Shown piece by piece: positions 4,051 to 57,125 of a DNA stretch of 64,000 nucleotides (positions are counted from its first letter, which is position 1; every line of letters starts with the position of its first letter). The notes under the pieces were generated by a model. That model made no database searches. It saw only the letters and a program-made list of their open reading frames with translations, and was not told the DNA's origin. The stretch comes from Sulfurospirillaceae bacterium (GTDB lineage: Bacteria > Campylobacterota > Campylobacteria > Campylobacterales > Sulfurospirillaceae), in assembly GCA_033723415.1 (NCBI GenBank), contig JAWVXD010000005.1, forward strand, positions 1 through 64,000, in the 5' to 3' direction. Both the position numbers and the translations under genes were made by a program.

Positions 4051-4135
4051 TGGTGCGACCAGCGAGATTTGAACTCGCACACCCGAAAGCACTACCCCCT
4101 CAAGATAGCGTGTCTACCAATTCCACCATGGTCGC
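4051..4135 (-). tRNA. tRNA-Leu (anticodon GAG), CCA encoded
   Basis: GCGACCATGGTGGAATTGGTAGACACGCTATCTT-GAG-GGGGTAG...GTTCAAATC...TGGTCGCACCA; long variable arm, 85 nt. Confidence 0.96.
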
Positions 4136-11136: not shown

Positions 11137-11326
11137 ACCCAAGCAGGCGTTCGTTTACAGTTTGGCCCTATTAAGCCAACGATGTAGAACTAATTTTATT
11201 TTTAGGCTGCAGATTCTAACCAGGTTAGTGGCTCAAGCAAAAATACAGACGCACCAATAAAACACCCGTCCCACAAATAACAATATGTTGGACCCTCATA
11301 AAAAACGGTGTCGCTCCACTCAGGCA
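11137..11326 (-). ncRNA. ssrS: 6S RNA
   Basis: ~190 nt between a TATAAT -10 box (11333-11338) and a terminator; 5' CCUGAGUGG pairs with 3' CUGCUUGGG. Position upstream of purD matches the epsilonproteobacterial purD motif, known to be 6S RNA. Ends approximate. Confidence 0.8.
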
Positions 11327-30720: not shown

Positions 30721-30821
30721 AAAAATTAAAATATTCTTGCAAAGGCATAGCTTTAGTGAGATAAATTTAACACGAGCTTTTGCCGGAGTTAAAGAAGAAA
30801 TTAAAATGAAAAGGTAACAAA

Positions 30822-54664: not shown

Positions 54665-56209
54665 TTATATTAAATTTTCTTTAACAAATCTTAGCCCTTC
54701 TTTCATAGAAATATAACTATTTAGTGCACCTATATATGCTTTGGCAGTTGCTTGCATTGTATCCACGCTCAAGCCGTGTCCTAAGATCGCAGGCTTGTCT
54801 TCATCAAAAACAACTTTTACTATGACACGAGCAAGTGCGTCTTTACCTTGCGTTACAGAATCCACTTTGTATTCTTTTAATTTTCCTTCTACCCCGCAAA
54901 CTCGATCAATAACTTTAAAGATCGCATCCATTGTACCATTTCCGATGGCTGCATCTGTGATGTTCTTTCCGTCATGACGTATTGTGACTGCTGCATTTGG
55001 AACACCGCCCGGGTTACAATCTGAAAGCTGCAATGTGACCAACTCAAAAACTTCAGAAATCTTGATAATCTCTGCTGAGATCAATGCTCTGATATCATCA
55101 TCAAATATCTCTTTTTTTGCATCTGCTAAAACTTTAAATTTTTCAAAAGCTACATTTGTATCTTCTTCGTTCAAACTGTAACCTAAATTTTTTAATTTAT
55201 CTTTAAATGCATGTCTGCCTGAGTGTTTACCCATAACTAAGGAATTATTGTCAAGACCGATATCTTTTGCATTCATAATCTCATAAGTCTCAGCATGTTT
55301 TAAAACACCGTCTTGATGGATTCCACTTTCATGAGCAAAAGCATTTTTGCCTACTATCGCCTTATTTGGTTGAGGCTCGATCCCGGTTACTGTAGAGACT
55401 AATTTACTTGTCGGATATATCTCTTTTATATTTATATTTGTATTGTAATCTGAAAAAATATCTTTTCTTGTTTTTAATATCATGACAATCTCTTCAAGCG
55501 CTGCGTTTCCTGCCCGCTCACCCAAACCATTGATAGTACATTCTATCTGTCTTGCACCGTTTTGTATGCAAGCTATTGAGTTGGCAACTGCCAAACCTAA
55601 ATCATTATGACAATGCACAGAAAGTATGGCTCTGCCATCAACACTTTCATGCAAAGATTTTATGATCTCACCCATCTCACCTGGCATTCTATATCCAACA
55701 GTATCAGGGATATTTAATGTCGTAGCACCTGCTATAATCACGGCATCCAATATCTCTTTCATAAATCCTATATCACTTCTGCCTGCATCTTCACAGCTAA
55801 ACTCTACGTCATCACAAAAAGTTTTAGCATAAGTGACTGCTTCAACGGCTTTTTTGATAACTTGATCAGGAGTCATCTTTAATTTATATTCCATATGGAT
55901 TGGACTTGTTGCTATAAAAGTGTGTATTCGTCTTTTATTTGCACTTTTAATAGCTTCTCCGGCTGCTTTTATGTCGCTTTCCATTGCACGGGCTAATGAG
56001 CATACCGTAGAATTTTTAACTTGATCACTTATCCTTTTAATCGCACCAAAATCTCCCGGGCTTGCTGCTGCGAAACCTGCTTCTATAACATCTACACCTA
56101 ATTTTTCCAATTGAAGTGCTATCTGAATCTTTTCCTCTGTATTCATCGATGCACCTGGACTTTGTTCGCCGTCTCTTAATGTCGTATCAAATATAATTAT
56201 ATCATTCAT
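54665..56209 (-). CDS. leuA: 2-isopropylmalate synthase
   Basis: [33 protein letters not shown]-terminal regulatory domain. Confidence 0.96.
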
Positions 56210-56262
56210 TGTATTTTTCCTTAATTTGTATATTGTGTTAAATTTAGTAAAGTATTAAATAA

Positions 56263-56358
56263 TTAGAGAGAGAGGAGGTTTTGCAGGAGAGCGTTTTTGA
56301 TTTCGATTTTAGGTAAGAATTTTAATGATTTTGCTATTCCGATGTGTACACCGTTCAC
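56263..56358 (-). CDS. Putative leu leader peptide (31 aa)
   Basis: SD AAGGAG (56364-56369), GTG start, MNGVHIGIAKSLKFLPKIEIKNALLQNLLSL*; 5 of the last 8 codons are Leu (CTC CTG CAA AAC CTC CTC TCT CTC). Confidence 0.7.
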   Translation of the reverse strand: MNGVHIGIAKSLKFLPKIEIKNALLQNLLSL

Positions 56359-56390
56359 AATTTCTCCTTTCGTAATAAATTTTGTTGTTT

Positions 56391-56396
56391 ATTATA
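56391..56396 (-). promoter_or_regulatory. -10 box (TATAAT) for the leader-leuA transcript
   Basis: TATAAT immediately after the pssA stop, about 20 nt upstream of the leader SD. Confidence 0.55.
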
Positions 56397-57125
56397 CTAA
56401 TTTTTTCTGTATTTTGCAATTGAAAAATTATAAATGGCTCTACACATACCGTAAAACAGATAAGCTGTTACAATTACTGTCAAACTTTCTATAGGATAAA
56501 GATATATAATTGAAAAGACCATAACAAGATAAACCAATACTTTAGTCAAATTCGGTTTTGTTAAATTTATCTTTTTGAAACTCGGATACCTGAAATTACT
56601 GACCATCAAAAGTGATATTAATCCGATACCTACTAGAACTATCATATTATACTCTTTTAAAAAGGCATACTTTTCAATCATGAGAATCCACATAGTAAGT
56701 ACAACTGCAGCAGTAGGAATTGGAACACCTATAAACACTGAAGGTTCACTTCCACTTATCATGACGTTGAATCTTGCTAATCTTATGGCTCCAAAAACGA
56801 CATACATAGCAGCAAGTAAAGAACCGACCTTACCGTAATTTATACCGACACTATAATAAAACAACATCGCCGGGGCAGCTCCAAAAGCAACTATGTCAGC
56901 CAAAGAGTCAAACTCTGCACCAAATTTACTTGCAGTGTTCGTAAGTCTTGCTACTCTTCCGTCTAGTCCGTCAAAAACCAATGAAAGAAGTATAAAAATT
57001 GCTGCTTTTTCAAAATCACCTTTAACAGAAGTCAAAATACTTATAACTCCGACAAAAATACTGGCAGCTGTAAATAAATTTGGAAATATATAAATTAACT
57101 GTATTTTATTAGTATTATTATTCAT
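56397..57125 (-). CDS. pssA: CDP-diacylglycerol-serine O-phosphatidyltransferase
   Basis: PNLFT, DGLDGRVAR...FGAEFDSLAD, RLARFN. Confidence 0.93.
   Translation of the reverse strand: MNNNTNKIQLIYIFPNLFTAASIFVGVISILTSVKGDFEKAAIFILLSLVFDGLDGRVARLTNTASKFGAEFDSLADIVAFGAAPAMLFYYSVGINYGKVGSLLAAMYVVFGAIRLARFNVMISGSEPSVFIGVPIPTAAVVLTMWILMIEKYAFLKEYNMIVLVGIGLISLLMVSNFRYPSFKKINLTKPNLTKVLVYLVMVFSIIYLYPIESLTVIVTAYLFYGMCRAIYNFSIAKYRKN

Follow-up and report, generated by a model that had tools for sequence, protein, structure and literature searches.

The closest described relative of the element analysed here is LeuL, named upstream of leuABCD in Campylobacter jejuni by Porcelli et al. in 2013 (PMC3847290). 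According to the accessible text of that report, LeuL carries the rare codons CUA, CUC and CUG, the C. jejuni leader RNAs terminate shortly behind the stop codon, orthologues are predicted in most Epsilonproteobacteria having leucine genes, and the LPKIEIKN peptides of C. concisus, C. curvus and Nitratiruptor are given in Fig. S7. Ribo-seq initiation peaks on C. jejuni LeuL, in the accessible part of Froschauer et al. (PMC11955535), indicate that it is translated. The window examined here, a stretch of 64,000 nt from a Sulfurospirillaceae bacterium, holds a further case of this family, and the element itself is not new. Like the published LeuL (an ORF of 20-35 aa with an RBS upstream of leuA and rare Leu codons at the C-terminus), the window leader is a 31-aa ORF with an AAGGAG ribosome binding site that ends 53 nt before leuA with four CTC codons and one CTG, and it has the LPKIEIKN-x-LL sequence common to the three Fig. 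S7 peptides. The C. jejuni LeuL, the source of the RNA and Ribo-seq data, is without the LPKIEIKN motif, unlike the window leader. The features of the locus are as follows.

56397-57125, minus strand: pssA, the upstream neighbour
56391-56419, minus strand: sigma70-type promoter (TTGCAA 56419-56414, 17-nt gap, TATAAT 56396-56391)
56363-56369, minus strand: strong leader Shine-Dalgarno (SD) sequence AAGGAGA, with the AAGGAG core at 56369-56364
56263-56358, minus strand: leuL leader ORF of 31 aa, MNGVHIGIAKSLKFLPKIEIKNALLQNLLSL, with orthologues (GTG 56358, TAA 56265-56263)
56293-56340, minus strand: peptide motif G-x-x-K-x-x-K-x-LPKIEIKN, residues 7-22, a candidate ribosome-tunnel element
56266-56289, minus strand: C-rich Leu tract CTC CTG CAA AAC CTC CTC TCT CTC, putatively sensing
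56210-56262, minus strand: 53-nt spacer from the leader stop to leuA, unstructured and G-free except for the leuA SD
56218-56222, minus strand: leuA SD AAGGA, without the GGAG that could pair with the tract
54665-56209, minus strand: leuA, 2-isopropylmalate synthase (IPMS) of 514 aa, TIGR00973 over cut-off, ATG 56209, the presumed regulated gene
4051-4135, minus strand: tRNA-Leu(GAG), the CUC reader

The preliminary description of this stretch had identified the TATAAT box, the AAGGAG and the 31-codon Leu ORF 53 nt before leuA, all of which were confirmed in minus-strand coordinates, with the start codon corrected to GTG. It knew of no described leu attenuator of such architecture in Campylobacterota, a point overtaken by the two reports cited above, and it did not cover conservation at the peptide level. 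The accessible text of both reports holds no mention of motif conservation, of a constraint on the second Leu codon (always CUG or CUA, hence CUR), of a helix between the Leu tract and the leader's own SD, of missing terminators or of Rho. A literature search thin on subscription journals likewise returned no published account of the first three and no mechanistic study of Campylobacterota LeuL. The element is known, yet the switching of leuA by a terminator-less LeuL is narrowed here to testable parts, namely the invariably CUR second codon, the predicted pairing of the tract with its own SD, a spacer free of G and the conservation of the peptide.

In the enterobacterial leuL attenuator stalling at hungry codons is the signal. 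The window leader is similar to it in having Leu codons ahead of leuA but has no antiterminator and terminator hairpins and no Rfam match; in particular, the competing antiterminator and GC-rich terminator with a U-tract that define RF00512 are absent from the window. Leader ORFs with conserved residues are also known from SpeFL-speF and TnaC-tnaA, and the window leader is predicted to work in a similar way (for TnaC as far as the accessible source text goes). According to the accessible text on SpeFL-speF (10.1101/604074), the rut site overlaps the 3' end of the ORF, stalling masks rut and polysomes are kept off rut. SpeFL and TnaC, however, respond to a free ligand, with stalling at the stop codon, whereas the window signal is apparently hungry Leu codons; its spacer is also much shorter than that of SpeFL-speF, and no sequence similarity to these systems is claimed. 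The actinobacterial LEU element, as presented in the accessible text of Seliverstov et al. (2005; PMC1262725), is a Leu leader that precedes leuA, has no terminator and forms pairs between its Leu codons and an SD. Its partner is the leuA SD inside a pseudoknot, whereas in the window the predicted partner is the SD of the leader itself and the spacer has no structure. The predicted pairing of the window tract with the leuA SD has a probability of only 0.10 (above 0.5 in 7/79 leaders), and the spacer (0.0 kcal/mol under a fold model without pseudoknots) offers no G to pair.

The TTGCAA of the promoter lies inside the pssA 3' end and its TATAAT abuts the pssA stop. The match on its own is at chance level (5 found versus 4.0 expected in the scan), and the call is credited because of position and recurrence, not match quality: a -10-like hexamer is present in 91/100 motif-class leaders (a raw count with no null), and pssA is found upstream of the leader in 77 of the 79 with enough flank. 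The spacer, which is U-rich and then A-rich, contains 6 C and, as previously noted, only two G in 53 nt, both in the leuA SD. Its folding energy is 0.0 kcal/mol, the terminator scan of the leader region returned 0 sites, and the Rfam search of the leader gave no family, the sole match being by chance (E 9.9). The claims that the locus is without a terminator hairpin and is not a classical terminator/antiterminator attenuator thus stand.

These observations bear on the general proposal of Porcelli et al. (PMC3847290, accessible text) that termination is factor-independent and atypical, brought about here by the long-range SD:tract helix or an AU-rich hairpin followed by the U-rich run behind the stop. 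U makes up 49% of the 15 nt that follow the stop, and some non-motif leaders have spacer hairpins (by eye), but a spacer hairpin is absent from the window (median -1.0 kcal/mol in the motif class), no terminator-like site was found, and a terminating ribosome would be expected to sit over the 3' arm of the SD:tract helix. We regard such a terminator as improbable. Separately, an AU-rich hairpin overlapping a -10-like box (GGTAAAAT or GATATAAT) was seen by eye to be common to longer spacers of leaders without the motif (L185, L186, L195, L197, L206, L208, L215, L219, L036 and L052 of family f6; L189, L190, L196 and L203 of family f10), possibly a second promoter or an atypical terminator.

The codon content of the tract is unusual for the genome. 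CTC and CTG constitute 7.1% and 7.8% of the Leu codons in the window genome (G000), and with genome codon usage the post hoc binomial probabilities, uncorrected for multiple testing, are 3.7e-4 for at least five Leu in eight codons and 1.2e-4 for at least four CTC among five Leu. The five Leu in the last eight codons, four of them CTC, and the matching tRNA-Leu(GAG) in the window had all been correctly recognised earlier. The emphasis then placed on CTC, in contrast, has to be shifted. Among 101 distinct leaders with the motif (class I) the first Leu codon is CTC in 71 and CTA in 18, whereas the second (56286-56284 in the window) is CTG in 85, CTA in 16 and CTY in none; the CUR rule also holds for 39/39 leaders that were not selected by the motif. 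ARAGORN found tRNA-Leu with the anticodons GAG, TAG, TAA and CAA in the window genome and no CAG among 35 tRNAs, so CUG is likely read by tRNA-UAG, encoded on contig C2. The strictest codon constraint thus falls on CUG/CUA, and tRNA-UAG likely matters beside tRNA-GAG. Since a purine in the second codon is no help in pairing with the A's before the SD, this position looks tRNA-driven. The tracts of one leader per genus and class (n=31) contain CTC 52, CTG 41, CTT 28, CTA 17, TTA 8 and TTG 0 times, compared with TTA 221, CTT 163, TTG 139, CTA 45, CTG 41 and CTC 31 times in leuA. The bias of CTC over CTT is not tRNA-driven because one tRNA reads both, and the codon counts suggest that C is needed in the RNA itself, whether for pairing or for Rho.

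The distribution of the leader was followed in 91 leuA upstream regions picked by LeuA similarity rather than by leader presence, comprising the best 30 loci from 41 relatives, 21 non-duplicates among the best 30 loci from 264 phylum genomes, and 40 hand-picked from listed matches for family spread. In this comparison across Campylobacterota, of the kind suggested in the preliminary description, an upstream ORF with Leu codons is present at 81/91 loci, 41 with LPKIEIKN (class I), 40 without it (class II), and 10 loci have none. Class I (G-x-x-K-x-x-K-x-LPKIEIKN-x-LL) spans five families. The existence of class II means that the motif is not required for a Leu leader. A motif pattern search matched in 94/401 phylum genomes and the reversed control in 0; 85 matches were paired with leuA coordinates by eye, and the nine without a listed nearby leuA were six leuA leaders and three chance matches, so the idea that the motif also precedes other genes was rejected. 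At least 119 loci were listed in a GTDB-wide scan: 110 before leuA, five leaders cut by the DNA end and four chance matches. None of three peptides matched Pfam, neither of two matched NCBIfam, and the ESM Atlas gave no usable match. A profile search of 1.84 billion representatives found 24 proteins, 22 leader-like peptides and two unrelated repeat proteins, and no larger parent protein was among these 24. Class I spacers are shorter than those of class II (medians 56 and 97 nt, from related genomes that are not independent). Within the window's own genus, locus L012 (G012) has no leader and a promoter about 30 nt before leuA, and at L017 (G009) the stop directly follows the Leu pair with the motif intact.

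The motif is conserved as protein, about as well as LeuA itself. Because 62 of the 101 class I leaders were chosen by the motif, its frequency is circular for the residues of the search pattern; outside that pattern the Gly is present in 99, and the two Lys in 96 and 99, respectively. For the 39 leaders not selected by the motif, pairs from the same genus (128 pairs) give a pN/pS of 0.07 over the 16 motif residues, and pairs from different families (451 pairs, with pS saturated) give 0.20. The eight residues that lie outside the class-defining motif reach 0.42, and class II leaders compared within genera 0.56; the pairs are non-independent and the class is itself defined by the motif. In 119 cross-family pairs the identity is 75% in the motif region, 72% in LeuA and 54% in the part that does not define the class. 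A cause at the RNA or DNA level was rejected, as Gly, Pro, Ile, Glu and Leu use most of their synonymous codons in class I leaders; for the motif Gly, Pro, Ile and Glu all codons are used, and Lys is mostly AAA. The motif's own Leu is TTA or TTG in 86/101 class I leaders, hence not a sensing codon. A quick unrooted tree of 54 LeuA proteins, broadly by family, requires 8 changes of class I, 5 of them forced by well-supported branches; its simplest reading would be an ancient motif with repeated loss. A convergent origin of 16 residues is unlikely.

In class I the spacing between the motif and the Leu pair is constant, with anything from 0 to 9 residues after the pair and a start 19-25 codons upstream, so that residues conserved as protein stand at a fixed distance from the presumed stall site, as is expected of an arrest peptide. 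The same conservation could be taken as a sign that the motif peptide, once released, targets a protein or an RNA in trans, in parallel with Leu-codon sensing and not exclusive of it. For such action the S. meliloti peTrpL is a precedent, and the Lys spacing of 3, 4, 4 fits one helix face. The fixed distance to the Leu pair, with a variable tail and start, counts weakly against it, as a rigid binding motif would look alike, and no LeuA column tracks the leader class: the search for co-varying LeuA residues gave no clear candidate (best difference 0.57, 21 versus 28 proteins). A trans-acting peptide is accordingly given little credence. That the small ORF is vestigial or non-regulatory might be suggested by the 10/91 leuA loci without a leader. 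Codon choice, purifying selection, recurrence before a second IPMS gene and the Ribo-seq of the C. jejuni orthologue all speak against it, and we consider it highly improbable.

Two anti-SD-like copies lie in the tract region, UCUCCU (56290-56285) and ACCUCCU (56279-56273), and the preliminary description had pointed out that the tract is complementary to the leader's own AGGAGA. The predicted pairing agrees with this. In the window fold the tract pairs with the leader SD with P 0.99, the main register joining 56368-56364 with 56273-56277 (P 0.91-0.95), and with the leuA SD with P 0.10. Among 79 leaders, the probability exceeds 0.5 for the leader SD in 64 (29/39 motif-class, 35/40 other) and for the leuA SD in 7 (2/39 and 5/40). 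Own tract:SD duplexes (-9.4 to -10.2 kcal/mol) are stronger than permuted ones (-8.4 to -8.7 kcal/mol; p <= 0.0012, n=31, five draws) and also beat spacer-shuffled controls in all five draws (n=31). On the other hand, no covariation was detected in the 39 motif-class leaders not selected by the motif (-10.47 versus -10.47), the whole leader region folds no better than shuffles (z 0.75), and a first Leu codon CTA, as in the 18 leaders mentioned above, disrupts one SD:tract pair. The helix may be in part a by-product, any CUCCU run pairing with any GGAG. The Leu tract is therefore predicted by folding to pair with the leader's own SD, not that of leuA.

Sequestration of the leuA SD by the CUCCU tracts is disfavoured and was rejected. 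GGAG is present in 123/141 leader SDs and in 446/1174 genome genes (38%), but in only 4/141 leuA SDs; tract:leuA-SD duplexes are weaker (-4.6) than permuted ones (-5.0) or those with generic SDs (-7.2), and duplexes between the post-stop run and the leuA RBS are also weaker than permuted. Given an SD without GGAG and weaker-than-permuted duplexes, translation of leuA does not look gated in these models. This weighs on translational attenuation as proposed for the actinobacterial LEU element, in which the leuA SD would be masked, by the CUCCU tract or by the U/C run behind the leader stop, unless a stalled ribosome covers the masking run. Some modelling results go its way: blocking the leader SD in the window raises the tract:leuA-SD probability from 0.10 to 0.36, the median openness of the leuA SD increases from 0.33 to 0.47 with a modelled stall, and strong post-stop:SD helices (-6 kcal/mol or better) occur at 8/141 loci. 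Against the duplex energies and the avoidance of GGAG, we nevertheless judge it a poor candidate.

The composition of the leader end points in another direction. The earlier suggestion of a C-rich, G-poor Rho-loading site survives in part: the spacer is indeed G-poor, but it is not C-rich, and the C's lie in the Leu tract. Taken together, tract and spacer fit, the tract as the putative C-rich 5' part of a Rho-loading site and the spacer as the putative 3' part of a Rho-loading or termination zone, and the window genome encodes rho over cut-off. This is the arrangement expected of rut-like, unstructured RNA with C over G at the leader 3' end; composition is no proof of rut, and the Rho step itself stays putative. 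The 70 nt of tract plus spacer contain 19 C and 2 G, equalled by 127/69,326 genome windows (about 0.2% with such extreme C-over-G). The first 37 nt after the stop are free of G in the window and in 42/101 class I leaders (mean 1.5 G), versus 1.9% of 476 control upstream regions (mean 4.6 G), some of which are untranscribed DNA. The 45 nt from the tract are 29% purine versus 55% in coding DNA, with 163/41,571 coding windows as low (about 0.4%), and the median purine fractions of the two leader classes are 0.31 and 0.33. In the accessible text of PMC13323073, Rho targets of B. subtilis are defined by an excess of C and by richness in T, and Campylobacterota are grouped with that species under runaway transcription, a phylum-level prediction.

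With these elements LeuL would control leuA by Rho-dependent attenuation relieved by ribosome stalling, a reading that we hold to be about as probable as its alternatives taken together. The promoter where pssA ends, the strong SD and the leader ORF are seen in the sequence; translation of the ORF is known for the C. jejuni orthologue only. When leucine is ample, the ribosome would clear the tract and depart; the freed tract would pair with the leader's own SD, curbing ribosome reloading, and the remaining pyrimidine-rich tract and the G-free spacer would be exposed, so that Rho would stop transcription before or early in leuA. When leucine is short, the ribosome would wait at the CUC-CUG pair, chiefly at the always-CUR second codon, shield the C-rich tract, hold the leader SD open and let the polymerase enter leuA, the SD of which would be constitutively accessible. 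The own-SD helix would thus keep trailing ribosomes off the Rho site, as rare Arg codons do in speFL. The leader at 81/91 loci, the lack of a terminator and of an Rfam family, and the short leader RNAs of C. jejuni count for this model, and a second IPMS gene is preceded by a leader that encodes an unrelated peptide but has the same tract and complementarity to its own SD. On the other side, a spacer of 53 nt is short compared with the 257 nt of the speFL-speF region, the SD:tract helix would mask part of the C-rich tract, and the open leuA SD could load Rho-blocking ribosomes. With runaway transcription, moreover, a ribosome-timed switch would need a pause of the RNA polymerase, and the C. 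jejuni leader 3' ends, which come from a motif-less leader, could be decay ends.

The latter possibility leads to control of mRNA stability, in which a Leu-stalled ribosome would protect the transcript from 5'-to-3' degradation by RNase J or keep RNase Y from cutting the bare, AU-rich spacer, making leuA mRNA longer-lived when leucine is short. The ermC leader in B. subtilis is a precedent. Both RNases are over cut-off in the window genome, the spacer is unstructured, the short leader RNAs of C. jejuni could be cleavage products, and no transcription-translation coupling is required. As the excess of C and the near absence of G are explained less directly in this way than by Rho, we consider it rather unlikely, although it is the best placed of the alternatives.

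The most speculative part of the Rho-dependent model concerns the peptide. Going by tunnel geometry, the motif would occupy the exit tunnel of a ribosome whose A site holds the second Leu codon. The 16 conserved residues might then fill the tunnel and lengthen or tune the stall, a possibility toward which we lean less than against it; they would be an add-on, because 40/81 leaders are without them. It is more doubtful still, and on balance unlikely, that the LPKIEIKN leaders represent an ancient unrecognised arrest-peptide family combined with a hungry CUR codon, in which the chain in the tunnel would prolong the pause, the helix between SD and Leu codons would limit translation to about one ribosome, and Rho would be the off switch. 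On that reading, attenuation of an amino-acid biosynthesis gene would do without terminator hairpins, and this in a phylum where transcription-translation coupling is predicted to be missing. If the peptide acts in the tunnel, it would add a new family to the short list of bacterial arrest peptides, and ribosome-timed control would be feasible where the RNA polymerase is predicted to run ahead of the ribosome.

The window genome contains a second Leu leader (MKNDHTMISISTAKIPTLSLCILLLQLL; CTC CTG CTG CAA CTC CTA TAA; AAAGGAGA) at G000:C2:50145-50231 on the plus strand (L250:1220-1306), 176 nt before a Tam-like SAM methyltransferase that is below family cut-offs. In relatives of genus g3 the gene for this methyltransferase comes after that of a second IPMS (438 aa) and, as a rule, before that of a LysE/RhtB exporter; judging from this gene order, the window genome likely retained the leader after losing the second IPMS gene. 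Of 16 fetched upstream regions of the second IPMS or methyltransferase, 12 (L264-L272, L274-L276) contain a Leu leader that has CTC/CTT-CTG codons and is complementary to its own SD. In genus g3 a conserved 33-aa peptide ends in Val and Leu codons, e.g., METFITHQTIHQPQSIAQFSNASLVVVLLLKLR, and is a possible Val-plus-Leu sensor. The scan found no Leu leader before the leuD-like gene and leuB, which lie apart from leuA on another contig (L263:4107-5680, G000:C8; names from sequence motifs).

Two further observations concern other elements. A dispersed repeat of about 80-100 nt gives 28 nhmmer matches (E <= 0.01) in the window genome, with one weak match in the window at 30730-30794; it often contains an ORF of 25-26 aa with an SD at both ends and lies directly before unrelated genes. 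By eye, similar DNA interrupts the spacer between leader and leuA at L002 and L015 and takes the place of the leader at L020. The window also carries the Rfam purD RNA motif RF01069 at 11137-11265 on the minus strand (74 bits); the C. jejuni 6S RNA was placed upstream of purD in the accessible text of Porcelli et al. (PMC3847290).
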